Origin: Patescibacteria group bacterium
GTDB lineage: Bacteria > Patescibacteriota > UBA1384 > XYA2-FULL-43-10 > 1-14-0-10-43-13
Direction: 5' to 3'
Length of the DNA: 64,000 nucleotides
Assembly: GCA_041649155.1 (NCBI GenBank)
Contig: JBAZNP010000001.1
Span: forward strand, 558,869-622,868
A model generated the notes under the pieces. That model saw nothing but the letters and a program-made list of their open reading frames with translations. It made no database searches and was not told the origin of the DNA. Shown here one piece after another: positions 3,580-55,839 of this stretch. The position numbers were made by a program, and so were the translations under genes. Every line of letters starts with the position of its first letter. Position 1 is the first letter of the stretch.

Positions 3580-4701
3580 TTATTGTTTCTCGTCTTTTGT
3601 TTCTTTTTCGCTGTCTTGTTCTATTAATGATTCCAAAATATTTTTCATATTTAAGTGAGCTGGGCAGGCTTCAATACATCGGCCACATCCGGTGCAGAGA
3701 AAGCGTTTGTTTTTGTGATATGATCTTACAAATTTGTGATGATACCAGTTATAAAGGCGATCGACATTTTTTGGTCTGAAATCATAATGATTTTGAATTT
3801 CAGAGAAACGTTTTGCAAAGCACGAATCCCAATTTAAGCATTGCTTACTTTCTCCTGTTAATTCATTTTTGAAGTCCTGTCTTGTGCAGAAGCAAAGGGG
3901 ACATACTGTGGAACAGGCGCCGCAACCGAAACAATTTTCTGAAATTTTATCCCAAAATTCTATATGTTTTTCTTTATTATCGATTATTTTAGAAATATTT
4001 TGTTCTGCAAAAGTTTTCTGGTTTGGTTTTATCTCACTTATCTGCAATTTTTTTTGTGACTGTTTTATGCCATTTTTCTTTAAAATTGCCTCCCCTCTTT
4101 TATTGCCGGAAAAAATGGCGTATTCGTTTTTTTCTTCCTGAACGTGTAAATCAAAAGGTGCCAATTTATTCGTTCCTGTCAAATCGCAAAAGCAATTTTC
4201 GTTTGGAAAGCATTCACTGGAAAATATTAAAATATTTTCTCTTTTGGGCAAGATTTTAGTGTCTGTAAATTCTTCCAATAGGTAATGCAGGGCCCAGACA
4301 TCGCAATTATTTAGACCGATTAGAGCAATTTTATTTGAGGAGTGAAGCGATCGAGAACTATTTCCGTTATTCCCGATCTCCAATTTGTCATTCCCGCCCC
4401 TTACTTTGTCATTCCCGCCCCGATGATTTATCGGGGTAAACATCCGGCGGGAATCTACTATTAGTGGATCACCGACTGGATCGGGGATGACAGAGGTAGC
4501 GTTCGGTTCCAAGAGGTTTGGAAATAAAATTTTCTTGAAAGGAATTATCGGCTTTTTATGACCAAGTTTTAAATCTGATGAGCTATTGAGCGCATCAAAA
4601 ACCAGCTTCCCGTCTTTTAACTGGGTGCCGTAAACTGTGTGAGTTTTTTTAATATAATCAATTAACTGATTTAATTGATGAATGGTTATTTGCGATTCCA
4701 A
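3580..4701 (-). CDS. Hydrogenase beta subunit, 4Fe-4S ferredoxin-domain protein, carrying an in-frame repeat-derived insertion
   Basis: Two Cys clusters: CFGCGACSTVCPLCFC and CTGCGRCIEACP. First gene of the minus-strand cluster. Residues ...INHRGGNDKVRGGNDKLEIGNNGNSS... are encoded by MITE-like repeat sequence at ~4383-4460. Confidence 0.75.
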   Translation of the reverse strand: MESQITIHQLNQLIDYIKKTHTVYGTQLKDGKLVFDALNSSSDLKLGHKKPIIPFKKILFPNLLEPNATSVIPDPVGDPLIVDSRRMFTPINHRGGNDKVRGGNDKLEIGNNGNSSRSLHSSNKIALIGLNNCDVWALHYLLEEFTDTKILPKRENILIFSSECFPNENCFCDLTGTNKLAPFDLHVQEEKNEYAIFSGNKRGEAILKKNGIKQSQKKLQISEIKPNQKTFAEQNISKIIDNKEKHIEFWDKISENCFGCGACSTVCPLCFCTRQDFKNELTGESKQCLNWDSCFAKRFSEIQNHYDFRPKNVDRLYNWYHHKFVRSYHKNKRFLCTGCGRCIEACPAHLNMKNILESLIEQDSEKETKDEKQ

Positions 4702-6046: not shown

Positions 6047-6115
6047 GTCATTCCAGACTTGATCTGGAATCTATATAAATAGTAACTGGATCCTGAATCA
6101 AGTTCAGGATGACGC
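6047..6115. mobile_element. MITE-like element (GTCATTCCAGACTTGATCTGGAAT-CTATATAAATAGTAACTGG-ATCCTGAATCAAGTTCAGGATGAC) directly upstream of fba
   Basis: Two perfect 8-bp-stem hairpins with an AT-rich TATATAAAT spacer. Termini GTCAT/ATGAC are inverted. Confidence 0.8.
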
Positions 6116-6124
6116 GAGGAAAAA

Positions 6125-6949
6125 ATGTTCATAAATGTTTCAGAGGAATTAAAAAAATCTAGAAGCGGCGGTTATGCGCTTGGTGCTTTTAATACAAATA
6201 ATCTTGAAGCGACAAAGGCTATTTGCGCAGCTGCTAAAAAGTCGGGCAAACCAGTAATAATTCAAACAACTCCCGGGACGATTGAATATGCAGGTTTAAG
6301 ACAAATATTCGAAATTGTAAAAACGGAAATTGAAGAAACAGGAATTCAGGCAGCGCTTCATCTTGATCACGGCAAAGATTTTGAAGTTGTAAAAGAGTGC
6401 ATTGATATTGGTTATCGCTCTGTAATGATAGACGGCTCAAAGTTACCTTTTGCTGAAAACGTTGCCCTGACAAAAAGAGTTGTTGATTATGCGAAGCCAA
6501 AGAATGTTTCGGTTGAGGCGGAGATAGGCGCTATTGGAACTGATGAAGGTGGAAAGAATGTAGGAGAAGGCACAATGAGTTCTCCTGACGAAGTAAGAAG
6601 ATTCGTGGATCTAACAGGCATCGATTCGATCGCTGTCTCGGTTGGAAACGAGCATGGGGCTCCTGAAGGGGAAAAAATTAATGTAAAGTTGCTTGAAGAA
6701 ATTTCAAAAATTATAGAAATTCCTTTAGTTATGCATGGTGCTTCCGGACTGTCTAATGAAGACATTAAAGCGGTTATTGGTCTTGGCATCGCCAAAATTA
6801 ATATTGATACACAAATTAGAAGGGCGTTCATCGCTGGAATGTCAGACATTGATGAAGAATGCAAAGACTATAGAGATGTTCTGAAAAAATCGATAAACAA
6901 TATAGAGAAAGTGGTAGAGGAAAAGATAAATTTGTTTTCAGAAAAATAA
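6125..6949 (+). CDS. fba: Class II fructose-bisphosphate aldolase
   Basis: YALGAFNTNNLE, HLDHG, MHGASG motifs of class II FBA/tagatose-bisphosphate aldolases. 274 aa. Confidence 0.9.
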   Translation: MFINVSEELKKSRSGGYALGAFNTNNLEATKAICAAAKKSGKPVIIQTTPGTIEYAGLRQIFEIVKTEIEETGIQAALHLDHGKDFEVVKECIDIGYRSVMIDGSKLPFAENVALTKRVVDYAKPKNVSVEAEIGAIGTDEGGKNVGEGTMSSPDEVRRFVDLTGIDSIAVSVGNEHGAPEGEKINVKLLEEISKIIEIPLVMHGASGLSNEDIKAVIGLGIAKINIDTQIRRAFIAGMSDIDEECKDYRDVLKKSINNIEKVVEEKINLFSEK

Positions 6950-6960
6950 ATTTTCGTCTT

Positions 6961-7082
6961 GTCATCCCGAGCAGAGTGTAACGGAGTCGAGAGATCTTGT
7001 GATAGTTAATTCATTAAAAGATTTCCCTGCCTGCCGGCAGGCAGGTCCGCCCCTTCGACAAAGCTCAGGGAGTCGAAATGAC
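6961..7082. mobile_element. MITE-like element, long variant in inverse orientation, with nested 20-bp palindrome (7026-7045)
   Basis: GTCATCCCGAGCAGAGTGTAACGGAGTCGAGAGATC...[CCTGCCTGCCGGCAGGCAGG]...CTTCGACAAAGCTCAGGGAGTCGAAATGAC. Halves are reverse complements of those at 11306-11410. Confidence 0.75.
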
Positions 7083-7108
7083 AAAATAATAATAATTCAT
7101 ATAAATTT

Positions 7109-8122
7109 ATGAAATATGACATCGTAACAATTGGTGATGCATTTGAGGATGTTTTTGTTTTTCCTTCTGATCTTCATGTGAAAAGAGATAAAAACTTTTC
7201 CGGTGGATACGGAGTTAGTTTTGAGCTGGGCGAAAAAATTCCCTTAAAGGAAGTTAGCTATGATGTTGGCGGTTCCGCCTGTAATGCATCTATAGGTTTT
7301 TGTCGGATCGGGCTTGATGCTTCCTTGGTTACAATAGTCGGACAGGACTCGCCAGCTGAAAAAATTTCAACACGACTTTCTTCTGAGTCTGTGGATCTTT
7401 CAAATATTAAAATTGATAAGAAAATGAAAACTAATTTTTCTACAATATTTTCTCTACCGGAAGGTCGAACTATTTTTACATACCATGGCCTTAAAGACTA
7501 TAATCAGTTAAGGATTAAGAAAAATATTCATTCTAAATGGTTTTTTTTGGCACCGATTGGAGATGGCACGGAAGAATTAGAGAAAGATTTAATTGCTAAA
7601 GTGTCGGAAGAAAATTCTTTTTTGGCTTGGAACCCTGGTTCTTTGCAGATAAAAAAAGGAGCTAGTAAGTTTCGTAATTTATTAAAAAATACCTCAGTAT
7701 TATTTCTAAACAGAGAAGAAGCATTAAAATTTATTGATTATCCGGTCAGACCATCCGAGGAAGAAATGCTTAAAAAATTATTTTTCCTAGGTCCAAAATT
7801 GGTTGTAATCACTAACGGGGATAAGGGCGCAAAGGCTTATGACGGAAAATCTATTTATCATGCGAATTCAATTGAAAATTTGAAAATGGTTGATGCAACC
7901 GGTGCCGGAGATAGCTTTGCGGTTGGTGTCATCTCGAATTTATTTTTGTGCAATTGGTCGGGGGAGTCCGATCAGGAATGTATCTCAGTGGCTCTTAAAT
8001 GGGGGATTGTTAATTCTTCGTCGGTGATTGGTTATGTCGGAGCTCAAAAGGGATTGTTGAACAAATCTCAGATCGAGAAGGAACTGGCCGGCAATCCAAG
8101 ACTAAAAGTAGAAGTTGATTAG
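7109..8122 (+). CDS. PfkB-family carbohydrate kinase (ribokinase/phosphofructokinase-like)
   Basis: C-terminal DATGAGDSFAVG anion-hole motif and GG N-terminal motif of the PfkB family. Placement within the glycolytic gene run. Confidence 0.8.
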   Translation: MKYDIVTIGDAFEDVFVFPSDLHVKRDKNFSGGYGVSFELGEKIPLKEVSYDVGGSACNASIGFCRIGLDASLVTIVGQDSPAEKISTRLSSESVDLSNIKIDKKMKTNFSTIFSLPEGRTIFTYHGLKDYNQLRIKKNIHSKWFFLAPIGDGTEELEKDLIAKVSEENSFLAWNPGSLQIKKGASKFRNLLKNTSVLFLNREEALKFIDYPVRPSEEEMLKKLFFLGPKLVVITNGDKGAKAYDGKSIYHANSIENLKMVDATGAGDSFAVGVISNLFLCNWSGESDQECISVALKWGIVNSSSVIGYVGAQKGLLNKSQIEKELAGNPRLKVEVD

Positions 8123-8166
8123 TAAATTAGTTGTAATTTTTCAGTAAATCAGCTGTCACTCTTCAT

Positions 8167-8235
8167 GTCATCCCCGTGAAGACGGGGATCCAAGATAGTA
8201 ATGGATTAGTAGATTCCCGTCTGCGCGGGAATGAC
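8167..8235. mobile_element. MITE-like element variant (GTCATCCCCGTGAAGACGGGGATC...GATTCCCGTCTGCGCGGGAATGAC)
   Basis: Two hairpins with GTCAT/ATGAC termini. Same family as the insertion inside hydB. Confidence 0.7.
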
Positions 8236-8464
8236 AAAGGGTCTTGAGTTGTCAGTTGAGCTAAAAGCTTGCCATGCATTGTGGACTATTTTGCTATTGC
8301 TAAATAAAAGTAATTTATCGTATAATGTTGTATATTACATTAATTTAAAATTTAGAATTTAAATTCAATTTAAAAATCTAAATGTTTAAACATTTTAAAT
8401 TAAATTATTGAAAATTCATTTTAAATTGAAAATTTTAAACTTTAAATTACTCCGAAGGAGTCTT

Positions 8465-9319
8465 ATGCACAGAGAAAAACTTACGGTGACAGTGAAAAAA
8501 GATCTTATTAAAAAGATCGATTCAATTGTTGACGGAGTGAAAATTAGAAACCGTTCTCATGCTACTGAATATTTGATCGAACAGGGGCTAGGTATAAACA
8601 AGGTCAACAAAGCAGTTATTTTGGCTGGTGGCAAGGGAACGCGTCTAAGGCCTTTTACATACGAACTTCCTAAACCATTGATCCCATTACAAGGAAAACC
8701 TCTTTTGCAGCACAGTCTTGATTTATTGAAATCTCACGGCATCACCGAGATCTATCTTTCAATCGGGTATAAGGGCGAACAAATTAAAGAATATTTCGGC
8801 AATGGTGAGAAGTTTGGCTTAAATATTAAATATCTGGAAGAGAAAGAACCCCTTGGAACTGCCGGTCCGTTGAAATTGGCGGAGAAATACCTGGATGACA
8901 CTTTTCTTTTAATCTGGTGTGACGTCTTGGCTGACATCGATCTTGATGATTTCATCTCTTTTCACAAAAATTCAGGTGGATTAGCTACAATGGCTCTTGC
9001 CTCGGTGGACGATGTAACAGCATTTGGAGTCGCCTCCCTGAAAGGATCTAAAATTAATGGTTTTGTTGAAAAACCAACAAAAGAAGAAGCGCCAAGCAAC
9101 TTAATTAATGCTGGCATGATTATTTTAGAGCCTAAGGTTTTTAAATATTTCCCTGATCAGAAAGTGATTTCGATCGAAAAAGAAGTTTATCCTAAAATCG
9201 TCGAAGCAGGAAAGATGTATGGTTATCCATTTTTTGGCCAATGGTATGATACTGGAACTCATGAAGCTTATGAGAAGGCAATCAAAGGCTGGAAAGGCCA
9301 TCGGGCGGGAAAGAAATAA
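8465..9319 (+). CDS. Sugar-phosphate nucleotidyltransferase with an N-terminal ribbon-helix-helix (CopG-like) domain
   Basis: ILAGGKGTRLRPFTYELPKPL NTP-transferase signature. N-terminal ~45 aa (LTVTVKKDLIKKIDSIVDG...RSHATEYLIEQGL) looks RHH-like. RBS ggag before ATG 8465; the tracked start 8408 lies in a very AT-rich repeat. Confidence 0.75.
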   Translation: MHREKLTVTVKKDLIKKIDSIVDGVKIRNRSHATEYLIEQGLGINKVNKAVILAGGKGTRLRPFTYELPKPLIPLQGKPLLQHSLDLLKSHGITEIYLSIGYKGEQIKEYFGNGEKFGLNIKYLEEKEPLGTAGPLKLAEKYLDDTFLLIWCDVLADIDLDDFISFHKNSGGLATMALASVDDVTAFGVASLKGSKINGFVEKPTKEEAPSNLINAGMIILEPKVFKYFPDQKVISIEKEVYPKIVEAGKMYGYPFFGQWYDTGTHEAYEKAIKGWKGHRAGKK

Positions 9320-9417
9320 GCAGTAAGTCGATAAGCGTGTAAACATGTAAGCAGTAGGGATAAAAATATCAGCTCTAAAGAGTTGATATTTTTTATGGTA
9401 ATCGTTTACTCTTAGTT

Positions 9418-9504
9418 GTCATTTCGACTCCTTGGCCTTGTCCAAGGGTGGAGAAATCCTATAAATAAACCAATAGAAGATCCCTCCACTTCGGTCGGGA
9501 TGAC
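9418..9504. mobile_element. MITE-like element, long variant (GTCATTTCGACTCCTTGGCCTTGTCCAAGGGTGGAGAAATC-CTATAAATAAACCAATAGAA-GATCCCTCCACTTCGGTCGGGATGAC)
   Basis: Same architecture as 11306-11410. Confidence 0.75.
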
Positions 9505-9599
9505 ATAGGGGCAAGTAAGTATTTTTTTGTGTCTTCCATTACTAACCAATAAGTGGTATAAGTTTAATTAGCGATCTTTTGACATGGAGGTAAGGGAGG

Positions 9600-9890
9600 A
9601 TGTCAGATAGGTTTTTTACGGGAGCGATAACATCTACTAGGATCATGGTTGCTTCCAGATCTGACGGCACTATTGCCGTTGATGGGTTTCTAGCAGAAAC
9701 AGCAATCCTTTCTGAAAGTTTAGGAAATAAGACCTCGCTTAAGTTTAGCGATCTCAGTCGGATTAATCAGGTGAATCTAAGGATTCTTAGCAACGGTAAA
9801 CTGTCCTACACATTGGGACCGTTCAGGGTTGGAGAATTGAGCCATCGAAAGGGATGTGCGGTGCTTAGCATTCCTTTTGAACTTCGTTAA
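9600..9890 (+). CDS. Hypothetical protein (96 aa)
   Basis: Strong RBS (ggaggtaagggagg) directly upstream and a perfect 9-bp GC stem terminator directly downstream. No recognisable domain. Confidence 0.4.
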   Translation: MSDRFFTGAITSTRIMVASRSDGTIAVDGFLAETAILSESLGNKTSLKFSDLSRINQVNLRILSNGKLSYTLGPFRVGELSHRKGCAVLSIPFELR

Positions 9891-9906
9891 TCCTTTTTCA
9901 TTATTA

Positions 9907-9937
9907 GCGGCCGCCTTTAGGCGGCCGCCTTCTTTTA
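9907..9937 (+). terminator. Rho-independent terminator (GCGGCCGCC-TTTA-GGCGGCCGC + T-rich)
   Basis: Perfect 9-bp GC stem followed by CTTCTTTT. Confidence 0.7.
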
Positions 9938-10032
9938 ATATCGGATTTTTTTTGCTAAGCTAATTAGGTCAGAATCAAAAATTATGAATCTGGAATAATG
10001 AATTTTAATAATAAATTGTTTGGCATCTAATA

Positions 10033-10077
10033 GGATCCTGAAACAAGTTCAGGATGACACTATTAGTTTGTCATGAC
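10033..10077. mobile_element. Partial MITE-like element (GGATCCTGAAACAAGTTCAGGATGAC...GTCATGAC) immediately upstream of tig
   Basis: Second-hairpin half of the 6047-6115 type. Confidence 0.55.
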
Positions 10078-10089
10078 GTTGGAGAAAAA

Positions 10090-11289
10090 ATGGAAGTTAA
10101 ATCAGAAGATCTTAAAAAGGGTAAGTTTAAATTAACTATTACTGTTTCGGCGGGGGAGATGGTCAATTATTTCAATAAGTCCTACGAAAAAATTGCGCCA
10201 ACTATAAAAATGGATGGATTTCGTCCAGGGAAAGCACCAAGAAAATTGGTTGAAGCAGCAGCCGGTACTGCCAGAATTCTTTCTGAAGCGCTGGATATGG
10301 CAATATCAGAAAATTACTACAAAGCAATAATTGAAAAAAATCTTAATCCGATCGTGCAGCCAAAAATTGTTGTAAATAAATATCCGAATTATGGCGACAC
10401 AACAGAAAGCGTTAAGGAAGATTTTGTATTTGAAGCAGAAATTGAAGTTTTGCCTCCAGTTGAACTGGGCGATTATAAAAAGTTGAAAGTTGCTAAAAAA
10501 TCTCCAGATAAGGCTAAACAAGAAGATGTCGAAAAAGTACTGAAACATTTTCAAAAACAATCATCCACTTTTGCTGATCTTGATCGCGCAGCCAAAAAAG
10601 GAGACAGAGCTGAGCTAAATTTTGAAGGTTTCTTAAAGAAAGTTAGAATTGATCAGATGTGTTCTAAAAATCATCCTGTAATTTTGGGCGAGGGAAACTT
10701 AATTCCAGGATTTGAAGATGAAATTATCGGAATGAAGAAGGGCGAAAAGAAAGAATTTAAGATAAAATTCCCGAAAGATTATCATTCTAAAGAATATGCG
10801 AGTAAAGAAGCTGAATTTAAGATCGAATTACTTGACTTGAAAGAAGTCAAATTATCGGAACTTGATGACGAATTTGCGAAGAAATTTGGTCACAAAAATA
10901 TGACCGAATTAAAAAATGCAATTGAGAAAAATTTAAATCAAGAGCTGGAAGAAGATCACAAGAGAAAGCTTGAAGCCGATGTGATTGAAAAAGTTTTAAC
11001 CGTTTTGAAAGTTGAAGTGCCGGAATCTTTGGTTGAACAGGAAACTCAAAGAATTTTAGGTGAATTTAGTAATCAGCTGACTTCTCAGGGAATAAATATT
11101 GATAGATATCTGGAAAGCATCAAAAAATCACAGGAAGATTTGCTTAAAGAGATGAAACCTCAAGCTGAAAAAAATGTTAAGACCGGACTTTTGCTCGGCA
11201 AGATTATTGAAGAAAAGAAATGGGATCCAAAGGATCCAAAAAATGGTGAAAAAGCGATACAATATTTGGTTAGTGAACTAACCAAATAA
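10090..11289 (+). CDS. tig: Trigger factor
   Basis: Ribosome-binding N-terminal domain, central FKBP-type PPIase region (PGFEDEIIGMKKGEKKEF) and C-terminal chaperone domain. Start set at ATG 10090 after GGAG; the tracked start at 10054 lies inside a MITE terminus. Confidence 0.85.
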   Translation: MEVKSEDLKKGKFKLTITVSAGEMVNYFNKSYEKIAPTIKMDGFRPGKAPRKLVEAAAGTARILSEALDMAISENYYKAIIEKNLNPIVQPKIVVNKYPNYGDTTESVKEDFVFEAEIEVLPPVELGDYKKLKVAKKSPDKAKQEDVEKVLKHFQKQSSTFADLDRAAKKGDRAELNFEGFLKKVRIDQMCSKNHPVILGEGNLIPGFEDEIIGMKKGEKKEFKIKFPKDYHSKEYASKEAEFKIELLDLKEVKLSELDDEFAKKFGHKNMTELKNAIEKNLNQELEEDHKRKLEADVIEKVLTVLKVEVPESLVEQETQRILGEFSNQLTSQGINIDRYLESIKKSQEDLLKEMKPQAEKNVKTGLLLGKIIEEKKWDPKDPKNGEKAIQYLVSELTK

Positions 11290-11305
11290 ATCGTTACTGC
11301 TGGCT

Positions 11306-11410
11306 GTCATTCCGACTCCTTGGCTTTGTTCAAGGGTGGAGGAATCTTACAAATTAAATTGAAAACTATTATAAGATCCCTCGACTCCGCTACGCTCTGC
11401 TCGGGATGAC
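11306..11410. mobile_element. MITE-like element, long variant, upstream of the MFS transporter
   Basis: GTCATTCCGACTCCTTGGCTTTGTTCAAGGGTGGAGGAATC...GATCCCTCGACTCCGCTACGCTCTGCTCGGGATGAC. Confidence 0.75.
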
Positions 11411-11496
11411 AACAGGAGATAGTGAGCAGTTATAAAATTCGTTATTCGTTAATTCGTATTGCAAATTAACTAGTTAACAAATTAACTATTTTTCAA

Positions 11497-12729
11497 ATGC
11501 AAAGCACATTTTTAAATGTTCTAAAATTTCCTGATTTTAAAAAGATTTGGTTGTCCCAAGTTTTTTCTCAAATTGCTTTAAATATGGTTACTTTTGCTTT
11601 GGTTTTGGATATTTTTGAAAAAACAAAGTCAAATACTTCAATCTCTTTGGTTATGATCGCTTCGGCGATTCCAGTTGCAATATTTGGACCGTTTTCAGGA
11701 GCGATTGCCGACAGAATTTGTTATCGAAAAATCCTCATGTATACTAACATTTTCCGTTTTGTTGCTGCAATTTTGTTGATAGTTGCTCATAGTAATATTT
11801 TGGCTATGCTAGAAATCATTTTTCTAATTTCGGCATTATCGCAATTTTTTACTCCTGCCGAGTCCTCGTCTATTCCTTTAATTGTTCCCAAAGAAAAACT
11901 TGTTCATGCAAATTCTTTGGTCATGACCACAACTTACATAACACTTTTGATCGGTTATGCTTCTGCCGGTCCGATTATGAACTATATTGGTTCTAAATGG
12001 CTTTTTGTAATATGTGCCGGTCTTTTTTTGCTTGCGACCGAGGCTACAAGAATGCTGAGTGATTTTGATAAAAAAGAAAATAAGTTATTGTCGATACAAA
12101 CACTCGCTTCTGATATTGCAGAAATTTGGAAAGAAGTTAAAGACGGTCTTAAATACTTAAGACACAAAAGCAATGTGTTAAATCCAATGATAAAGCTCAC
12201 AATCGGGTGGGCAATGCTTGGAGCGTTCATTACTCTATTGCCTGCTTTTGGTGAAAGTGTACTGAAAATCGCCCCAACGTTTATTGGCCCAACAATAATT
12301 GCACCTGCAGGTTTGGGGATGCTTATTGCAGCTGTCGTGATCAGTAAGAGAACAAAATTGAATCAATTAAAAGTTTTAGACAGCGGATTTCTGATTGCCG
12401 GTATTGGTTTTATTTTCTTTTCATTATATAAGTTTTATGATGCCTTTGAGCTTTCCAAATTATTTTTAATTTTATTGGTAATTGTGCTTGGTTTTGGTTC
12501 GGCGATGATTCAAATTTCTGCCCAAACATTATTACATTTGAATTCAGATGAAGAGCAAAGAGGCCGTGTTTTTGGGATTTCTTCGATGCAGTTGCGCCTA
12601 GCCACTTCTTTGCCGGCTCTAGTCATTGGTGGTGTTGCCGACCTGACTTCACCGCTTGTAACAATGATGATTTTGGCATCATTATTCTTTATTTACTCTT
12701 TCTCACTAATATTTGAAGAAAGAGTATGA
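11497..12729 (+). CDS. MFS-type transporter
   Basis: 12 predicted TM helices; MFS-like motif (GAIADRICYRK) between TM2 and TM3. 410 aa. Confidence 0.75.
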   Translation: MQSTFLNVLKFPDFKKIWLSQVFSQIALNMVTFALVLDIFEKTKSNTSISLVMIASAIPVAIFGPFSGAIADRICYRKILMYTNIFRFVAAILLIVAHSNILAMLEIIFLISALSQFFTPAESSSIPLIVPKEKLVHANSLVMTTTYITLLIGYASAGPIMNYIGSKWLFVICAGLFLLATEATRMLSDFDKKENKLLSIQTLASDIAEIWKEVKDGLKYLRHKSNVLNPMIKLTIGWAMLGAFITLLPAFGESVLKIAPTFIGPTIIAPAGLGMLIAAVVISKRTKLNQLKVLDSGFLIAGIGFIFFSLYKFYDAFELSKLFLILLVIVLGFGSAMIQISAQTLLHLNSDEEQRGRVFGISSMQLRLATSLPALVIGGVADLTSPLVTMMILASLFFIYSFSLIFEERV

Positions 12730-12801
12730 TAAATCAAAAATTCTAATGTCTAATTTCAAATTATTCTAAACAAGCACCAGCCAATAAGGTAATGGTTCAC
12801 T

Positions 12802-12870
12802 GTTATCCCAGACTTGATCTGGGATCCATATAAATAATTACTGGATCCTCGGGTCAAGCCTGAGGATGAC
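12802..12870. mobile_element. MITE-like element upstream of clpP
   Basis: GTTATCCCAGACTTGATCTGGGATCCATATAAATAATTACTGGATCCTCGGGTCAAGCCTGAGGATGAC. Confidence 0.75.
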
Positions 12871-12978
12871 ACGAGATATTTGTAATTAGGATTTAGAAAT
12901 TATTATTTTTCTATTGTCAGAATAATTTTCTGGTGGTAGAATACTGTGTTATTAGATTTATTATAAATAAGGAAGATT

Positions 12979-13687: not shown

Positions 13688-14284
13688 ATGGGAGGGGTTG
13701 TGAAAATTAAATCAAAAGCATTTACATTAGTTGAACTTTTGATAGTAATGGCCATTATCGGAGTGCTTGCTGCAATCGTTGTAGTCAACTTAACCAGGTC
13801 ACAAAAAATATCAAGGGATGCACGAAGAGTTGCTGATTTAGATACAATAAATACTGCTTTAATGCTGCATTATGATTCAAAGAAAAAGGTGATTACCAGT
13901 GCATGCGATAATAACACTTATACAGTTAATGATTTGAATTTAAACCATTTCTTGGTTGATGAGGGGTATTTACCGAGTATGCCGAAAGACCCCAAATATC
14001 CAACATCTGGCAATTATTATGAGCAATATTTATATGTTTCAACAACATATTCTACCCACTATTATCCTCATGTAGCAAGTTCTTGCGGGGACTATAGTGA
14101 TAGTGTGGCATTTAGCTGCAGCGCTTCTACTGGAAGTCCTTGTAGCAATTACTTCCTTTATGCCAACTTAGAAACTGATAAATACCAAAATATTACAACT
14201 GAATCATTATGGACAGCTAATCACATGTCTTCTTTAAGTTTCAATGATAAAAATTTATATTATATGTTAGGACCAAATAAGTAA
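13688..14284 (+). CDS. Type IV pilin-like protein (prepilin-type N-terminal cleavage/methylation domain)
   Basis: KAFTLVELLIVMAIIGVLAAIVVV class-III signal peptide (G/FTLxE) followed by a hydrophobic helix. Confidence 0.8.
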   Translation: MGGVVKIKSKAFTLVELLIVMAIIGVLAAIVVVNLTRSQKISRDARRVADLDTINTALMLHYDSKKKVITSACDNNTYTVNDLNLNHFLVDEGYLPSMPKDPKYPTSGNYYEQYLYVSTTYSTHYYPHVASSCGDYSDSVAFSCSASTGSPCSNYFLYANLETDKYQNITTESLWTANHMSSLSFNDKNLYYMLGPNK

Positions 14285-14303
14285 TTAGGGTAAATAATTA
14301 AGT

Positions 14304-15260
14304 ATGAACATTCAAGAAATTTATAACTTAGCAATTCAGATTGGCATCGACAATGATCCAAGGGGTCGAGCCAAAGTTGAAAAAATTCTTTCAAAAAGGA
14401 AGGAAGAGTATTTGGAATTGCCGAAAGAGAAGAAGAAAGATTTTGATATTTCAAAATTGGAAAGTCCTTATTCTGACTCAGGAATTCATTTTGGAGACAC
14501 TAAAAAGGAAATTAAAACCATTCTTGTCGGCATTGACATTGGTGTTGAGGAAATTTTGCTGGCAAAAGAACTAGAAAGGCAAGGCAAGAAAATTGACTTG
14601 ATTTTTGCTCACCATCCGGAAGGCAAAGCCTTGACTAATTTGCATGAGGTTATGGATATTCAAACCGATGTTTTGGCTCGTGCTGGAATGCCGGAAAACA
14701 TTGCCGAAGGTGTGCTGGCCGACAGGATTAGGGAAGTTTCGCGAACAATTGCGCCGATCAATCATTACAAACCGGTTGATGCTGCAAAATTATTAAATAT
14801 GCCTTTATTAAATATTCATACACCAGCCGATAACTGTGTTTGGAATTTTGTTGATAAATATATAGAAGAAAAAAAGCCTGAAACTGTTGGCGAAGTGGTT
14901 GAGACTCTAAAAGAAATTCCAGAATACGCAGAGGCAGCCAAATTAAATACTGGCCCAACTATTTTCGCCGGCAGCGAGAAAGGGAGAGCGGGAAAAATTG
15001 TGGTTTCAGGCATGACTGGTGGTACCGGCGGCAGCGAGAAGATTTTTGAACGCATGAGTCACTATGGAATTGGAACCGAAATTGGCATGCATTTAGGAGA
15101 AAAACATCGGGAGGAAGCAGCCAAGCATTATATTAACATTGTAATTGCCGGTCATATTGCTTCTGATTCTTTGGGTCTTAATATTATTATGGACGAGCTC
15201 GAGAAAAAAGGGATTGAGATTATCCCATGTTCGGGATATATACGACATTCGAGAATATAA
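14304..15260 (+). CDS. Nif3-like dinuclear metal centre protein (YbgI/DUF34 family)
   Basis: FAHHPEG, NIHTPADN and AGHIASDSLG motifs match the HHP / HTxxD / GHYxSE pattern of the Nif3 family. Confidence 0.55.
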   Translation: MNIQEIYNLAIQIGIDNDPRGRAKVEKILSKRKEEYLELPKEKKKDFDISKLESPYSDSGIHFGDTKKEIKTILVGIDIGVEEILLAKELERQGKKIDLIFAHHPEGKALTNLHEVMDIQTDVLARAGMPENIAEGVLADRIREVSRTIAPINHYKPVDAAKLLNMPLLNIHTPADNCVWNFVDKYIEEKKPETVGEVVETLKEIPEYAEAAKLNTGPTIFAGSEKGRAGKIVVSGMTGGTGGSEKIFERMSHYGIGTEIGMHLGEKHREEAAKHYINIVIAGHIASDSLGLNIIMDELEKKGIEIIPCSGYIRHSRI

Positions 15261-15291
15261 ATATAATAAATATAAAAGTACTAGGAGGGAT

Positions 15292-15903
15292 ATGCAATTT
15301 TTTAAAAGAAAAAAAGCCTTTACTTTAATAGAGATTTTAGTAGTTGTATCTATTATTGGTATATTAGCTTCTGTCGTTACAGTTAACTTGATTTATGCCC
15401 AGAAGAAGTCGAGAAATACAAAAAGAATCGGAGATTTGGAGGCAATGAACAATGCCATAAAACAATATTACGCTACAGAAAATAACTTGCCTGATAATCG
15501 CGCTAGTAGCGGAGCCTGTATTGTAGGGTCAAGCTATGGAGGCGGAGTTTGCCTTGGCGAATTAATAAGTAATTACATGGCTGTGCTTCCAACTGATCCA
15601 TTAAATCAGCCTGGCAATAAATATTCTTATCATAATTATGGCACTTACGTTACGATATTTGCGAGTCTTGAGCCACAACAATATGGTCCTTTTCCATATG
15701 GCTGGAACTGTAGCGGTGACAACTCGTCTGGCGGTTGGTGGGCTGGCATGGAATGTGATAGTATAGGAGATTCAACGGAAAGAAAAATATGTACCGATGC
15801 TCTCATGGACAATAACCCAACAACAACATATACTCCTCCAGAAGGAATAACATTAAATGTGCCGGGAGATACCAAAAAGTATTGCAATGGATTTAAACTA
15901 TAA
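15292..15903 (+). CDS. Type IV pilin-like protein
   Basis: KKAFTLIEILVVVSIIGILASVV prepilin N-terminus. AGGAGGGA RBS before ATG 15292; the tracked 15145 start overlaps the upstream gene. Confidence 0.8.
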   Translation: MQFFKRKKAFTLIEILVVVSIIGILASVVTVNLIYAQKKSRNTKRIGDLEAMNNAIKQYYATENNLPDNRASSGACIVGSSYGGGVCLGELISNYMAVLPTDPLNQPGNKYSYHNYGTYVTIFASLEPQQYGPFPYGWNCSGDNSSGGWWAGMECDSIGDSTERKICTDALMDNNPTTTYTPPEGITLNVPGDTKKYCNGFKL

Positions 15904-15908
15904 TACTT

Positions 15909-16502
15909 ATGTTTATATTTAATTTATTAAAAAGAAAACAGAGGAAAGGGTTCACACTAGTTGAACTTCTAGTTGTTACGGCGATTATTGCAATGCTGGC
16001 ATTAATTGTGGTTATTAATGTGAGTCAATCGCAAAAACGTTCACGTGATTCGAGAAGAAAAGCAGATCTTAATTCAATTTTAACAGCTATGCTGTTTTAT
16101 TATGATGATCATAATACTCTTTCATTAGCTGGGTGTAATTGTGGATATAACAATGAAGGGAGAGGTTGGTTTAATTATGTGGGTGGCGGGTCTTACGCTA
16201 CTTCAATTGCGGAATATCTTAAATCAAGTAACTATCTAAGCAGTACTGTCATCGACCCGTCAGGCAAGACCTCTTGTATGCCAGGCGCTGGTGGTAGTTG
16301 TGATACTGAAGATGGCGGACCGTATATGCTGCATTATGATCTTGGTACAGGAAAAAAGATTACTGTTTATGCTAAAATGGAATCGACGAAATCGGTGGTT
16401 GATGTTAACAACAGTTGCAATTCCAGTCCTGCTATTCCACCGGCAGGGACTCTATATTGTACTGACTACTATAGGAATTATTCTTTAACTGCTACAAAAT
16501 GA
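15909..16502 (+). CDS. Type IV pilin-like protein
   Basis: KGFTLVELLVVTAIIAMLALIVV prepilin N-terminus. Confidence 0.8.
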   Translation: MFIFNLLKRKQRKGFTLVELLVVTAIIAMLALIVVINVSQSQKRSRDSRRKADLNSILTAMLFYYDDHNTLSLAGCNCGYNNEGRGWFNYVGGGSYATSIAEYLKSSNYLSSTVIDPSGKTSCMPGAGGSCDTEDGGPYMLHYDLGTGKKITVYAKMESTKSVVDVNNSCNSSPAIPPAGTLYCTDYYRNYSLTATK

Positions 16503-17092
16503 GTACTATAACATATCGAGGAGGACGAGTGGATAGTAAAAGAGCTTTCACATTAATCGAATTATTGGTTGTGGTTGCTATTATTGGTATTTTGGCGACT
16601 ATTGTGTCATTAAACATTGTTGGCGCACAGGAAAAATCAAAAGTTGCCAAGGCGGTGGAGCAAATAAATACAGTCGAAAAAGCAGTGAAAATGTATTACG
16701 CTGATGTTTATGATTGGCCGCCAACTTGTAGGTCTGTTGATTATCATGCAGACTGTAATTCAACAGAAGACCCATTTTTGTTAACTCCGACCGGTGTTGA
16801 TAGATGGAATGGTCCCTATATAGACGAAGGTATTTATAACATGAAGCATCCTTGGGGGGGAGCCGTAGAATATTGGAAGGATACAACTGCAGGTAAATTG
16901 AAGGTTGTTTTAGACGATGATGCACCAGCAAAAGCTTCAGTTGATAATAGCGGAAATATCCCCGATTCGGCATTGCTAAAAATTGATCAGTTAATTGATG
17001 ATGGCAATTTACATACAGGATCTGCATTGCAGTCAACTGATGGTGGCGCAGGGTACATCGGCGAGATAGTGCATTCTTTCGTTTCCTTGTAA
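16499..17092 (+). CDS. Type IV pilin-like protein
   Basis: RAFTLIELLVVVAIIGILATIV prepilin N-terminus. 4-nt overlap with the upstream gene. Confidence 0.8.
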   Translation: MSTITYRGGRVDSKRAFTLIELLVVVAIIGILATIVSLNIVGAQEKSKVAKAVEQINTVEKAVKMYYADVYDWPPTCRSVDYHADCNSTEDPFLLTPTGVDRWNGPYIDEGIYNMKHPWGGAVEYWKDTTAGKLKVVLDDDAPAKASVDNSGNIPDSALLKIDQLIDDGNLHTGSALQSTDGGAGYIGEIVHSFVSL

Positions 17093-17184
17093 GAGTTTTA
17101 TTGGCAAACATTGATTATTTGTAATATGCTTAAAACAATAGTGTGGGTTATCTGAATACCTAAACAGATCTATAAGGAGGCGGG

Positions 17185-17730
17185 GTGAAAAAAATAAAAG
17201 ATTGCAACCTTGAGCAAAGTCGAATGGGCTTTACTCTGATTGAACTATTGGTTGTAGTGGTTATTATTGGTGTTTTAGCCACAGTTGTAGTGGTTAGCCT
17301 AACCAGCGCTCAGGAAAAATCAAGAGATGCAAAGAGAATCAGTGATCTAAAACAAATTGACCTGGCGATTGATTCATTCTATACGGACTATCAACATCTT
17401 CCCGGTGGGTCATCGATGGGCACCTTCAGCCTTTATGTTATAAACAACAATACTTACACTGGAGATACCTCAAGCTGTAGTGCTGGTGGTTTATTGCCTT
17501 ATCTTCCTGACGTGTGTAGGGATTATGGACCCAAACATACTACTGCCACCGCTGATGCTTACAAGGACGTTTATTTATATGGTTTCGCTGATGCCAAGAA
17601 AGACACTTACCATCTTGGTGCTCAATTCGAATCTTCTAATAATCAAGGTAATACATTCACTTATTGTAGTTCGAGTTCAAATTGTTCAGCCACTGATACA
17701 AGTTATACTGGTTATTATCTAATAAAGTAA
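17185..17730 (+). CDS. Type IV pilin-like protein
   Basis: MGFTLIELLVVVVIIGVLATVVVV prepilin N-terminus. GTG start after AAGGAGG. Confidence 0.8.
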   Translation: MKKIKDCNLEQSRMGFTLIELLVVVVIIGVLATVVVVSLTSAQEKSRDAKRISDLKQIDLAIDSFYTDYQHLPGGSSMGTFSLYVINNNTYTGDTSSCSAGGLLPYLPDVCRDYGPKHTTATADAYKDVYLYGFADAKKDTYHLGAQFESSNNQGNTFTYCSSSSNCSATDTSYTGYYLIK

Positions 17731-17771
17731 TCTAATATTGTTAGTCGGACAATGCCAAAAAAAGGAAAGAA

Positions 17772-18299
17772 ATGAAATATAAAAAAGGGTTTACTCTGAT
17801 AGAGATTTTGGTCGTCGTCGCTATTATTGGAGTTTTAGCCACAGTTGTGATGGTAAACGTAAGAAGAAACATAGCCAAAGCTAACTATACAAAAACTCTG
17901 AGCGACATGACGGCGATTGCTAAGTCAGTCAATCTTTATACTGCCGAACACAATGTAACAAAACCAAAGGAATGGAGCGGGTATAGAAATTATTCTCATG
18001 CTACTGATGGCGCTCACACATTTTATAATAGTACGGATTCTTCTGACTCTAATTACAATGATTTTTTTGCGGACAAATTAGATAACGTGAGACCCGTGCC
18101 ACCATGTGAAGGTTCTGCTTATTCTTATTACAACAGTTCGACTTATTCTTTTATCATATATTGGACACCGAATTCTGGAGGTCATAGTAATGTTATGTTG
18201 CCAGTGGAGGGTGTTATGCCTTCAGGTTATGTTAATATTAAAAACAAAACTGAAAAAAGCATTTCATGTAAAGAAACACGGGACTCAGATTTTCAATAA
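17772..18299 (+). CDS. Type IV pilin-like protein
   Basis: KGFTLIEILVVVAIIGVLATVV prepilin N-terminus. Confidence 0.8.
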   Translation: MKYKKGFTLIEILVVVAIIGVLATVVMVNVRRNIAKANYTKTLSDMTAIAKSVNLYTAEHNVTKPKEWSGYRNYSHATDGAHTFYNSTDSSDSNYNDFFADKLDNVRPVPPCEGSAYSYYNSSTYSFIIYWTPNSGGHSNVMLPVEGVMPSGYVNIKNKTEKSISCKETRDSDFQ

Positions 18300-18346
18300 T
18301 TTGCAGATAGCTTCTTAGCTGGCCTATATTAATCTAATTTGTGCTG

Positions 18347-18582: not shown

Positions 18583-20045
<1,463 letters not shown>

Positions 20046-20170
20046 TAAGGAGAATCGTCCATCAATTCAATGATGGTTCGATACGGTCGATCGTCTGATA
20101 TTCGTTCTTGAATATCGAGACGCAAATCCTATGCTAAACCTTAGCATAGGTGCGTACTTTATCACTATTT

Positions 20171-36274: not shown

Positions 36275-36742
36275 AACAACAGATGACGAATAATACAGAT
36301 AATACGAATGACAGAAAAGTAGAACAGCTGATTTATAAGGAGTTGTCTTATAAGCTAGTTGGTCTTGCGTATGAAGTATGCAACACTCTTGGCGAAGGAT
36401 TAAAAGAAGAAGTATATAAAGATGCTTATGCGTTATTACTTGATAAAGAAAAAATTCCTTATGCGAAAGAGTATTATTATTCAATAAAGATAAGAGATGA
36501 AATCATTGCAAAAAGATTCTTTGATTTTTTGATTGATGATAAAATAATAGTTGAATTCAAAGTGGGCGGAAAAGCATATTTTAGTTCTTATAAACAATTA
36601 TTGGAATATCTTAAATCCAGTAAGTATAAATTAGGGTTGATAATCAGGTTTTCGTTAGATGGTGTAAAGATAAAGCGTATCCCAAATTTGTATTAATCAA
36701 CTTAAAAATTAGTATTATTTGTCTTATTAGTAATCTGTTGTT
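36275..36742. mobile_element. TIR-bounded cassette carrying the GxxExxY gene
   Basis: Head AACAACAGATGACGAATAATACAGATAATAC. Tail revcomp AACAACAGATTACTAATAAGACAAATAATAC. Imperfect ~30-bp TIRs. An internally deleted ~90-bp derivative lies at 56588-56677. Confidence 0.65.
36283..36696 (+). CDS. GxxExxY family protein
   Basis: LVGLAYEVCNTLGEGLKEEVYKDAYALLL...IIVEFKVGGKAYFSSYKQLLEYLKSSKYKLGLIIRF matches the GxxExxY/PD-(D/E)xK-like family pattern (GPGFLExxY ... DhhV(E)hK ... LLNYLKxxGLKLGLLINF). Confidence 0.75.
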   Translation: MTNNTDNTNDRKVEQLIYKELSYKLVGLAYEVCNTLGEGLKEEVYKDAYALLLDKEKIPYAKEYYYSIKIRDEIIAKRFFDFLIDDKIIVEFKVGGKAYFSSYKQLLEYLKSSKYKLGLIIRFSLDGVKIKRIPNLY

Positions 36743-40938: not shown

Positions 40939-40975
40939 TTAAAATTCACCTCTTTTCAATTATCCGTTTGAAAAT

Positions 40976-54354: not shown

Positions 54355-55839
54355 ATGGCAAAAGAAAATAACAATGCCGCATCCGACAAAGTCGGAGCGG
54401 GCACCCCTGCTTATACTGAAAGCGGAATGCGAGGCAAGATGGAAAAGATTATCTCTTTATGTAAAAGACGTGGGTTCGTCTATCCTGCTTCGGAGATCTA
54501 CGGTGGTTTTGCAAATGCCTTTGACTATGGTCCGCTTGGTGCGCAATTAAAGAAAAATGTTAAAGATGTCTGGTGGCAGAAGTTTGTAACTGAGCGCGAT
54601 GACATGGTCGGGCTTGACTCGGCAATTATTCAAAATCCAAAAACATGGGAAGCTTCAGGGCATTTGAAATCTTTTTCTGATCCTCTTGTAGAATGTAAAA
54701 AATGCCATAAACGTTTCCGTGAAGACCATATTCAAGAATTGTTGGAAAAGATTGGTGCTGCTGCTGACGCGGTGACGGGATCCCTGATCAAGTCCGGGAT
54801 GACAGAAGGGTTATCACAGGAACAAAGAGATATGTTGTTTTGCAAAGGCGCAGAAGAGCATGATTTTACGGAAGCGAAGAATTTTAATCTTATGTTTAAG
54901 ACTTTTATAGGCGTGACGGAAGATTCGGCTTCAACTGCATATTTGCGGCCGGAAACTGCTCAGGGTATATTTTTAAATTTTAAAAATGTTCTGCAGTCAA
55001 GCCGTGTCAAAATTCCTTTTGGTATTGCCCAGATCGGAAAAGCTTTCCGCAACGAAATTACTCCGGGAAATTTTACCTTTAGAACAAGAGAATTTGAACA
55101 GTCTGAGATTGAATATTTTATCAAACCAGACAAAGAAGAGTCGCAGAAAACTTTTGACTACTGGATAAAGATCTGGAAAGAGTTCTTCTCTGATTTGGGT
55201 ATTAAAGATGAAAATCTTACCATTAGAGCGCATGACAAAGAGGAACTTTCTCATTATTCAACTGGTACGTCAGACGTAGAGTATAACTTTCCGTTTGGAG
55301 TATCAGAACTTGCCGGTGTAGCCCAAAGAACTGATTTTGATTTAAAACAGCACGAAAAATATTCCGGACAGGATGTAAAATATTTTGATGAGACTACCGG
55401 TGAAAAATTTATTCCTTATGTGGTTGAACCAACGATGGGTGTTGATCGAGCTGCCTTAGCATTTTTAGTAGATGCTTATGATGAATCAGACGGAACTGAT
55501 GGCAGGGCAGAAGGGGAGGTCACACTTCATCTACATCCAAAACTAGCTCCTATTAAAATCGCAGTGTTCCCGCTGGTAAAAAAAGAAGGTCTGCCAGAAA
55601 TAGCCAAGGAAATAGTTTCTAATTTGCGAAAAGCAGGAATCGAAACTTTTTATGATGAAAGCGGATCAGTTGGTAAGAGATATCGAAGACAGGATGAAAT
55701 TGGCACTCCATGGTGCGTTACAATTGATTTTGACTCGATAAAAGACAAAACAGTGACAGTCAGAGATAGAGATACGATGAAGCAGGAGAGGATGAAAATT
55801 ACAGAAGTAATTGGTTTTGTGCAGGGAAAATTAATCTAA
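54355..55839 (+). CDS. glyQS: Glycine--tRNA ligase, alpha2 (homodimeric, GlyQS) type
   Basis: Class II aaRS motifs. N-terminal RRGFVYPASEIYGG...FDYGPLG characteristic of alpha2-type GlyRS. C-terminal anticodon-binding domain. Confidence 0.85.
   Translation: MAKENNNAASDKVGAGTPAYTESGMRGKMEKIISLCKRRGFVYPASEIYGGFANAFDYGPLGAQLKKNVKDVWWQKFVTERDDMVGLDSAIIQNPKTWEASGHLKSFSDPLVECKKCHKRFREDHIQELLEKIGAAADAVTGSLIKSGMTEGLSQEQRDMLFCKGAEEHDFTEAKNFNLMFKTFIGVTEDSASTAYLRPETAQGIFLNFKNVLQSSRVKIPFGIAQIGKAFRNEITPGNFTFRTREFEQSEIEYFIKPDKEESQKTFDYWIKIWKEFFSDLGIKDENLTIRAHDKEELSHYSTGTSDVEYNFPFGVSELAGVAQRTDFDLKQHEKYSGQDVKYFDETTGEKFIPYVVEPTMGVDRAALAFLVDAYDESDGTDGRAEGEVTLHLHPKLAPIKIAVFPLVKKEGLPEIAKEIVSNLRKAGIETFYDESGSVGKRYRRQDEIGTPWCVTIDFDSIKDKTVTVRDRDTMKQERMKITEVIGFVQGKLI

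Follow-up and report, generated by a model that had tools for sequence, protein, structure and literature searches.

Outward-tagged hairpin repeats, very probably of the CGTC (Ssn-related motif) family, in a housekeeping gene block of a Patescibacteria genome

Genomic setting and inventory of elements

The window analyzed here, a whole 64-kb stretch of contig JBAZNP010000001.1, derives from a metagenome-assembled genome of the Patescibacteria (Candidate Phyla Radiation, CPR), has a G+C content of 37.4% and is also present as the same DNA in ENA assembly ERZ27247363. The nearest named relatives are the Berkelbacteria, with ~54% identity by comparison of trigger factor. A co-directional block of housekeeping genes in this window has the order pgk, fba, pfkB, an NTP-transferase gene, a gene for a 96-aa protein, tig, a major facilitator superfamily (MFS) transporter gene and clpP, and small structured elements with inverted termini, each composed of one or two tagged hairpins (units), occupy most of its intergenic gaps. 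These elements were initially annotated as Correia-like miniature inverted-repeat transposable elements. We find instead, with high confidence, that they are CGTC/TGTC-tagged repetitive palindromes, or Ssn-related motifs, of the family that includes dRS3 and NTS of Neisseria and RPE-4/6 of Rickettsia. A wider region of 83 kb (the window and 19 kb of flanks, ~10% of the ~0.8 Mb genome) was included in the analysis.

Each of the ten positions at which the initial annotation had placed an element (4383, 6047, 6961, 8167, 9418, 10033, 11306, 12802, 34200 and 51692) was found to hold one. The terminal motif GTCATYCC was matched 18 times in the window compared to an expectation of 2.84 ± 1.77 (100 shuffles, none of which reached 18); four of these matches (19700, 42817, 61775 and a duplicate at 4387) are chance matches in rRNA or coding regions or a partial copy. 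The census of the window stands at 22 units, arranged as nine two-unit elements (doublets), three single units and one truncated unit, as follows.

4387-4407 and 4408-4491: truncated unit plus outward-tagged doublet, with a nested hairpin in the left-arm loop
6047-6113: two-unit element, short type, pgk-fba gap; covariance scores of 44.8 and 42.5 bits
6961-7082: two-unit element, long type, fba-pfkB gap; interrupted stems, with CCTGCCTGCCGGCAGGCAGG (7026-7045) nested in the right arm
8167-8235: two-unit element; covariance scores of 29.6 and 27.2 bits; fold as single-stranded DNA (ssDNA) with z = -6.45
9418-9504: two-unit element, long type; the terminator of the NTP-transferase gene precedes it and the 96-aa gene promoter follows
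10034-10058, minus strand: single unit, TGTC-ATCCTGAA-CTTGT-TTCAGGAT-C; 40.1 bits; 31 nt upstream of the tig start at 10090
11306-11410: two-unit element, long type, tig-MFS gap
12802-12870: two-unit element, short type, MFS-clpP gap; the conserved clpP promoter (12914-12942) lies downstream of it
34200-34287: two-unit element, short type; the loop of its right arm contains a nested palindrome, CCTGCCTACCGGCAGGCAGG; 94% identical to the 51692 copy
51692-51758: two-unit element, short type, in the gap between an ispD-like gene and recO; inverted spacer
53565-53592, minus strand: degenerate single unit, TGTC-ATCCT…AGGAT-C, between divergent genes; 17.2 bits, E = 0.07
54778-54803, minus strand: single unit, TGTC-ATCCCGGA-CTTGA-TCAGGGAT-C, inside the glyS open reading frame (ORF) 54355..55839; 40 bits

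The elements are concentrated in the housekeeping block, as had been noted at the outset: of the eight consecutive gaps from 4.7 to 13 kb, seven hold an element, compared to three of ~52 gaps elsewhere (Fisher p = 2e-6, for a region picked after the fact). The 4387-4491 element is not intergenic and lies inside an ORF. Within the cluster the elements start 5-98 nt past stop codons. The placement originally given, 0-100 bp upstream of a start codon, suits most copies, which lie 11-108 nt upstream, but not the 8167 element at 230 nt nor the 4387-4491 element within its ORF. The family is not restricted to this one region: copies were also found at 34.2, 51.7, 53.6 and 54.8 kb, and three further doublets are present in the 9.4 kb upstream of the window, while no tagged-repeat doublet was detected in the 9.5 kb downstream.

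Architecture of the tagged unit

Each unit, ~25-28 nt in size, consists of a [T/C]GTC tag, a palindrome that begins with AT and ends with AT, and a C. The 5' tag is unpaired, the stem opens with an A-T and a T-A pair, and the palindrome is followed by the unpaired, invariant C and a short tail of the form CCA(G), CTA(T/C) or CTT. The tag reads TGTC in 18 units, CGTC in three and TGTT in one; GTC is kept in 21 of 22 units and the C right after the palindrome in all 22. Short-type units have stems of 7-9 bp and loops of 4-6 nt, typically an 8-bp stem and a CTTGA loop as in the 6047 element, where a left unit TGTC-ATTCCAGA-CTTGA-TCTGGAAT-C is separated by a 17-nt spacer from the inverted right unit CGTC-ATCCTGAA-CTTGA-TTCAGGAT-C. 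The loops are of 4-5 nt in 11 short-type units (CTTGA, CTTGT, GAAG) and of 6 nt in one (CGCAGA). Loops of 14-45 nt are found in the long-type arms and in three arms with nested hairpins; the stems of the six long-type arms are interrupted, with the base AT(Y)(Y)C…G(R)(R)AT retained. The 12802 element carries the degenerate left tag TGTT, and its right arm has a 9-bp stem that includes one G-T pair.

All nine doublets have their tags facing outward across spacers of 17-28 nt, and no tail-to-tail or tandem dimer was present in the window, which holds only three single units. With the tags outward, either strand of a doublet can fold as ssDNA into two small hairpins or one long one. Predicted ssDNA folds had z values from -2.6 to -6.5, with the tags unpaired in the two-hairpin form (for the 6047 element, two hairpins with unpaired tags at z = -4.9). 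Across the family, six of eight stem pairs have changes on both sides, in an alignment of units that were pre-selected for pairing. Distant copies within the window are 86-94% identical, and the 6961 element is 87% complementary to the right arm of the 11306 element.

For the unit, a covariance model was built and was run across the whole window without filters. By this approach, 15 units were recovered at E < 0.1 in tag-first orientation; all short-type units scored 27-45 bits and several long-type arms 17-20 bits. The reverse, untagged reading of the same palindromes scored only ~10 bits compared to 40-45 bits for the tagged reading, and the unit is therefore oriented. The model also added two units that the initial annotation lacked, at 53565-53592 and 54778-54803.

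Membership in the CGTC-tagged repeat family

Repeats of this construction have been surveyed as CGTC-tagged REPs by Di Nocera, De Gregorio & Rocco (2013, BMC Genomics 14:522; PMC3733652). That survey describes a terminal CGTC, often TGTC, with families CGTC-1 and CGTC-2; stems of 8-9 bp starting A-T, T-A; loops of 4-5 nt that are variable in some families; a CCA-like tail; and mostly head-to-head dimers with the tags outside, a CCTC tag variant being allowed. Assignment of the window units to CGTC-1 or CGTC-2 is based on stem and loop lengths only. The survey equates these repeats with Neisseria dRS3 and Rickettsia RPE-4/6, and the hosts it names are Proteobacteria, Chlorobi, Bacteroidetes, Spirochaetes and Thermotogae, with Patescibacteria not among them. 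The dRS3 repeat has since been extended to the 28-nt NTS, CGTCATTCCCGCGMAVGCGGGAATCYRG, and generalised as "Ssn-related motifs" (SRM) by Chenal et al. (2025, Nat Commun 16:2388; PMC11893778). The SsnA protein of that study, a 94-aa GIY-YIG protein, binds and cuts the motif only as ssDNA and not in its RNA form; by mutagenesis, the C after the palindrome was critical for binding and the 3 nt before the palindrome for cleavage (PMC11893778). Genes encoding SsnA are typically motif-flanked (NTS-ssnA-NTS), and in N. meningitidis NTS and SsnA together lower transformation by motif-bearing DNA (PMC11893778).

A search pattern derived from the short type of the window, GTCATYCNNNNCTTGANNNNGRATCN{15,28}GATYC, was searched against one genome per GTDB species and matched at least 120 stretches compared to ~8 expected by chance (our own uniform-composition estimate). 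Among the matches listed, 125 of 142 had fully complementary NNNN/NNNN stem positions, compared to 0.4% by chance, T or C preceded the pattern in 93%, CAG was the commonest tail, and the doublet architecture was the same throughout. The partner arms, which the pattern leaves unconstrained, gave the consensus TGTCATTCCCGCGAAAGCGGGAATCCAG, which is that of the published NTS. Carriers among the matches listed include Alpha-, Beta- and Gammaproteobacteria, Campylobacterota, Bacteroidota, Ignavibacteria, Nitrospirota, Thermodesulfobacteriota, Dehalococcoidia, Planctomycetota, Cloacimonadota, Aminicenantes, Elusimicrobia and Firmicutes, well over ten phyla overall, and genera and groups reported as carriers in the 2013 paper were recovered as well (Sulfurovum, Novosphingobium/Sphingopyxis, Coxiellaceae and Flavobacteriia). 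At least ten Patescibacteria genomes were matched (Parcubacteria, Peribacteria, Saccharibacteria, Gottesmanbacteria and unclassified members). The range of the family is in this way widened to at least four CPR lineages and to many phyla that the 2013 survey does not name. Within the window itself, the right unit of the 8167 element (8212-8235), TGTCATTCCCGCGCAGACGGGAATCTAC, is NTS/dRS3-like and nearly NTS itself.

Identical 25-mers shared across phyla were considered as a sign of horizontal transfer and this was dropped, because only four stem positions are free and, under a single recognition rule, convergence would be expected to produce identity. In viral contigs the pattern was rare (15 stretches), with no sign of phages as main carriers. 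A literature search on miniature inverted-repeat elements in Patescibacteria returned nothing relevant, and the repeat sequence words matched only primers.

Gain and loss among relatives

Syntenic loci of three relatives (L002, L004 and L006) were compared to the window. In these loci, with Tig identities of 81%, 75% and 63%, gene order was kept and 1, 2 and 0 units were present, compared to 14 full units and 1 truncated unit here within the same block. The relatives with the same gene order are thus mostly free of elements, which indicates a lineage-specific expansion. The fba-pfkB gap measures 11-16 nt in L002 and L006 compared to 159 nt here, where it houses the 122-nt element, and the gap orthologous to tig-MFS is 37 nt in L006. 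Between the NTP-transferase and 96-aa genes, the terminator and promoter are adjacent in the relatives with no element in between. In L004, a unit of the 10034-10058 sequence type occupies the same gap between the 96-aa gene and tig, where it is oppositely oriented and belongs to a doublet. What stands of the initial annotation is that the elements are small, structured and of a single family with inverted ends; this family is gained and lost between relatives.

No target-site duplication was detected in the element flanks, which read T|GTCAT...ATGAC|A without a repeat; the flanks of the relatives, at 75-81% protein identity, are too diverged for exact junctions to be read.

The gaps of L002, L004 and L006 each carry short word arrays of their own as inverted repeats (CAAGATA/TATCTTG, GGTAT/ATACC and GTAGTA/TACTAC, respectively), and the window has its own word array, ATTCGTTA, at 11411-11496, a species-specific hairpin vocabulary that is separate from the tagged repeats.

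Copies within genes and their effect on annotation

The 4387-4491 repeat lies in frame inside the minus-strand ORF 3580..4701, which encodes a 373-aa Fe-S subunit beside [NiFe]-hydrogenase genes. The ~55 extra residues that it encodes (…VIPDPVGDPLIVDSRRMFTPINHRGGNDKVRGGNDK…) are missing from the orthologues of L002 and L006, which are 75% and 55% identical. A second in-frame copy was found in uvrC, where a doublet ~6.7 kb before the first position of the window (L225:18599-18673) lengthens the protein by 25 residues (LSFQPVARELESRKGETGSQIESGMT); two further doublets lie in intergenic gaps near uvrC. The unit at 54778-54803 encodes …TGSLIKSGMT… in an indel-rich loop of GlyRS, within a stretch of 16 residues that are extra relative to solved GlyRS structures. 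The insertions in the Fe-S subunit and UvrC are real, and that in GlyRS is probably so. In-frame intragenic copies, notably in repair genes, are among the features that the 2013 survey reports for CGTC-tagged REPs (PMC3733652).

The repeats also create spurious start codons and ORF extensions in annotation. The terminal GATGAC had been proposed to supply the ATG of an ORF twice. For tig this does not hold: homologues of trigger factor are 399 aa, which places the start at 10090 and not at 10054, and the element therefore does not give the tig ATG. For the pilin-like gene the proposal is plausible, as the ATG at 34283, inside the terminal GGGATGAC, yields a 7-aa leader as in the neighbouring pilins, and this gene probably starts there, within the ATGAC terminus of the element, although the gene caller chose 34187.

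Another sequence near tig, GTCATGAC at 10070-10077, reads as two tags fused head to head and lies 12 nt past the single unit 10034-10058. It was considered as an excision footprint or the remnant of a lost partner unit; with two copies in the window compared to ~0.7 expected (own estimate), it proved uninformative.

A proposed role at the level of single-stranded DNA, and the search for a partner enzyme

With the elements reassigned from Correia-like to the CGTC/SRM family, the mechanism to be expected is no longer one of transcription or RNA processing but one in which a nuclease recognises ssDNA hairpins. The best-supported reading, which we infer from Neisseria and other bacteria, is that the elements are substrates of an Ssn-type ssDNA nuclease specific for a hairpin plus tag. 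During a single-stranded phase (replication, transformation uptake or repair), a small Ssn-family nuclease with a single GIY-YIG domain would bind the hairpin and the 3' C and would cut just upstream, within or beside the tag. Such cleavage could fragment incoming motif-bearing ssDNA and so lower recombination around motif-flanked genes, and the pairing of nuclease and repeat is thought also to spread the repeats. In this organism the family has undergone a recent expansion that fills the gaps of one housekeeping block, with in-frame insertions tolerated in several proteins, and any effect on neighbouring transcripts would be a by-product. Cleavage by an enzyme of this type in the present organism, the mode of spread and the effect on transformation are all predicted by analogy.

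Several observations weigh against this reading. Only one of the 22 window units (8212-8235) fits the published SRM pattern, HGTCWYN(0-2)YYVSBRHN(0-5)WNVSBRGN(0-2)RNCYNB, which was derived from 29 genomes of 4 phyla (PMC11893778). The long-type arms (6961, 9418 and 11306), with their interrupted stems and loops of 14-45 nt, go beyond the published description of 8-9 bp and 4-5 nt. No gene of the Ssn clade (cd10448-type) and no transposase family was detected among the genes called over the 83 kb, ~10% of the ~0.8 Mb genome. The window has a single GIY-YIG nuclease gene, which is not flanked by units, and at 80 metagenomic loci of its subfamily only 3 units were found in 385 kb, with none adjacent. 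Outside Neisseria, the literature assigns CGTC-tagged repeats no established biological role. With respect to the first of these points, A/T stands in the remaining units where the SRM pattern demands G/C, and they are therefore best described as an AT-rich variant, of a kind that the published pattern misses.

The GIY-YIG gene in question was considered as the partner nuclease:

37578-37823, minus strand: GIY-YIG gene, 81 aa (Pfam PF01541), between two tRNA genes

Its product belongs to a CPR-specific subfamily of 78-81 aa, with 55-77% identity across Patescibacteria, CPR2 and WS5. The candidate was rejected on account of the lack of neighbourhood association in the 80 loci and its marginal similarity (E = 0.001) to the SRM-flanked Ssn-like protein of L071, a Bacteroidales locus. 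At L071, an Ssn-like GIY-YIG gene has a matching element ~50 nt upstream, and its C-terminus, …VGND…, reads like an overlapping unit; the layout resembles the NTS-ssnA-NTS arrangement (PMC11893778). The 96-aa gene of the window (9600-9890) was also considered, as it is unit-flanked, and was rejected as a resident syntenic gene that is present in relatives without the repeats. Many homologues of the 81-aa protein were observed on very short contigs.

Uptake of DNA from the environment is widely assumed for Patescibacteria, and some nine pilin-like genes are encoded in this window alone. The repeat-gene-repeat array at pgk-fba-pfkB-tig-clpP might work at the ssDNA level as a fence against the replacement of core genes during uptake, perhaps with a non-canonical Ssn as the enzyme; this extension is improbable and is offered as speculation. 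Being only ~0.8 Mb in size, the genome could show which enzyme recognises and spreads CGTC repeats, a question without an answer in 2013 and with a partial one in 2025. We regard the system as of moderate interest for its extension of the family to the CPR, the dense repeat-gene-repeat array at core genes, the in-frame insertions and the lack of an obvious partner enzyme in the examined region.

Nine genes with a type IV pilin-like N-terminal segment (…(G/A)F(T/S)LIE…) were found at 13708-18300, 32850, 34294, 53774 and 55912, an unusually high density of pilin paralogues for 64 kb.

Alternative explanations

A role at the RNA level, in which hairpins transcribed between the cistrons would stabilise the 3' ends of upstream mRNAs, dampen read-through or yield small RNAs, would be compatible with a DNA-level role; we hold it unlikely as the explanation of the elements, though RNA-level side effects may occur. 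The cluster genes are all co-directional, the elements begin shortly after stop codons, and some stems have G-T pairs on the sense strand, as in the right arm of the 12802 element. The 2013 survey argues that many CGTC-tagged REPs are transcribed (PMC3733652). In addition, a permissive Rfam search returned a weak match of 12789-12895, spanning both hairpins, to FtrB (RF02748), an experimentally detected 115-nt RNA of Francisella whose Northern probe contains AGTCATTCCCGCGTAGGCGGGAATC (PMC3091763). The match, at 34.6 bits, falls short of the gathering score (66), and the segment is not a member of RF02748; at gathering thresholds, the only Rfam hits over the whole window were rRNA and tRNA. It arises because the FtrB consensus itself holds a doublet of the family (GUCAUUCCCGCGUAGGCGGGAAUC … GAUCCCCGUGUCAAGCACGAGGAU), and since FtrB was detected as RNA, doublets of the tagged-repeat family can form part of stable RNAs. 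Deletion of FtrB, however, gave no phenotype (PMC3091763), and the RNA form of the motif is not bound by SsnA (PMC11893778). No T-tracts were found after the hairpins, the 9418 copy sits between a terminator and a promoter, and the relatives without elements at the same sites point to the absence of a conserved regulatory need.

The initial annotation proposed that the elements are portable promoters, or modules for RNase III/E processing or insulation of downstream genes, as Correia-like elements; the evidence now makes this very unlikely. Most copies do lie upstream of a start codon, they fold strongly, and the spacer of one sub-type contains TATAAAT. The outward terminus ATGACA also resembles a -35 box, which a promoter scan paired at 7078-7083 with TAAATT at 7102-7107. 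Sigma-70-like sites in total, however, numbered 28 compared to 24.9 expected, and no plus-strand site was located in any spacer, which does not bear out a mobile promoter or insulator module. Promoters that are conserved with the relatives (8297-8326 before the NTP-transferase gene and 12914-12942 before clpP) lie downstream of the elements, and the same operon runs in relatives that have no elements. The spacer CTATATAAATAGTAACTGG, initially described as well conserved, was common to only four copies (6047, 12802, 34200 and 51692), and in the last of these it is inverted relative to the downstream gene and to the other three; spacers are otherwise unrelated between sub-types and across taxa. 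Three or four copies, finally, are inside ORFs. Nor do the termini fit the Correia label: 5-8 nt are shared at the termini across sub-types, with no ~26-nt terminal inverted repeats, and no TA duplication was seen.

Also very unlikely is an origin as REPINs, that is, REP doublets moved by a RAYT (an IS200/IS605-like Y1 transposase) as in Pseudomonas and E. coli. The layout is REPIN-like in its short hairpin and unpaired 5' tag, its inverted doublets able to form a long hairpin, its intergenic location and its lack of target duplication, but the tag is [T/C]GTC and not GTAG. No Y1_Tnp (PF01797) or other transposase family was found among the genes called over the 83 kb, in line with the 2013 survey, in which CGTC repeats never flank RAYT or other transposase genes (PMC3733652).

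Very unlikely as well is a main function as integration sites for IS110-family elements or filamentous-phage recombinases, a function that dRS3 has in Neisseria: the 2013 survey does report REPs as insertion sequence (IS) targets in several genera (PMC3733652), but no IS, phage or recombinase gene lies beside any copy within the 83 kb, and the pattern is, as noted, rare in viral contigs.

Other repeats and features of the window

A second palindrome, CCTGCCTGCCGGCAGGCAGG, is perfect over 20 nt and occurs five times in the window (7026-7045, 20198-20217, 34257-34276, 41815-41834 and 57345-57364). Two of its copies are nested exactly in tagged-repeat hairpin loops and two are beside the 16S and 23S genes. 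Further copies (L061:4530, L087:92, L147:5610, L148:79 and L164:5290) were found on other CPR metagenome contigs and in tagged-repeat loops of Bacteroidota and Thermodesulfobacteriota genomes. The palindrome seems to be a repeat in its own right, of wide distribution and with hairpin loops as its target.

The 16S gene (18585-20044) is unlinked to the 23S/5S genes (42232-45411), which lie 22 kb away. A 72-nt segment, 85% identical between its two copies, occurs after the 16S gene (20168-20239) and before the 23S gene (41785-41856) and contains the CCTGCC palindrome and an ACAGAT/ACGAAT word array; these segments may be what is left of a split operon, or processing signals common to the two loci.

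A 137-aa PD-(D/E)XK nuclease-family gene (Pfam PDDEXK_3; 36283..36696, plus strand) lies between 35-nt inverted repeats (36275-36309 and 36708-36742) that are 86% complementary. The repeats are built of ACAGATAATACGAAT-like words, and the left one provides the start codon and first ~10 codons. Arrays of such words are also found at 20214, 41831, 56592, 57119 and 57144, often next to the CCTGCC palindrome, and the layout is reminiscent of a small nuclease gene that has a family of repeats to itself.

The 40-nt sequence CTATCTTAGGTTTACATACGGCCGTTGCAAAATCTAAGAT is identical at 20564-20603 and 21186-21225, upstream of a PaaX-like regulator gene and a NUDIX gene, with a third copy of 85% identity after recO (52546-52585); its inverted ends, ATCTTAG…CTAAGAT, suggest that it is possibly an operator. 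Direct repeats of ~110 nt at 40777-41477 correspond to tandem small genes, one product of which has weak LEA_5/KGG-type Pfam matches.

Comparison with known systems

Correia elements (CREE/NEMIS) are bounded by conserved inverted repeats of ~26 nt, duplicate a TA at their target, bear promoter boxes at their ends and, in the long form, contain an IHF site. The window elements resemble them in being small, abundant, intergenic and foldable in RNA, with inverted ends, and have none of the 26-nt repeats, TA duplication, IHF site or end promoter boxes. With FtrB, the 12802 element has the repeat core alone in common. The GTAG-tagged REP, BIME and REPIN elements share the short tagged hairpin, doublets in inverted arrangement, ssDNA-level processing and a lifestyle proposed to be domesticated or selfish, but carry another tag and rely on a Y1 HUH transposase, whereas the CGTC family is associated with a GIY-YIG nuclease.

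RPE-4 and RPE-6 of Rickettsia belong to the same CGTC family (PMC3733652) and likewise insert in frame into protein-coding genes. By contrast, most copies here are intergenic, and the host is free-living or epibiotic, whereas Rickettsia is an obligate intracellular alphaproteobacterium.

With NTS/SRM, the window elements share the CGTC-AT…AT-C-YRG logic, retention of the 3' C and the upstream GTC, and repeat-gene-repeat arrays at particular genes; they differ in the single unit of 22 that fits the published pattern and in the lack of an ssnA homologue within the 83 kb. The CGTC-tagged REPs share the tag, the A-T/T-A stem start, the CCA-like tail, the head-to-head dimers, the mainly intergenic placement with occasional in-frame copies and the absence of a transposase alongside, while the differences lie in the Patescibacteria host, the AT-richer stems, the three dimers with long interrupted arms and the second palindrome present in two loops. 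The window elements are an AT-rich variant, in a new phylum, of an already known repeat family rather than a new kind of system.

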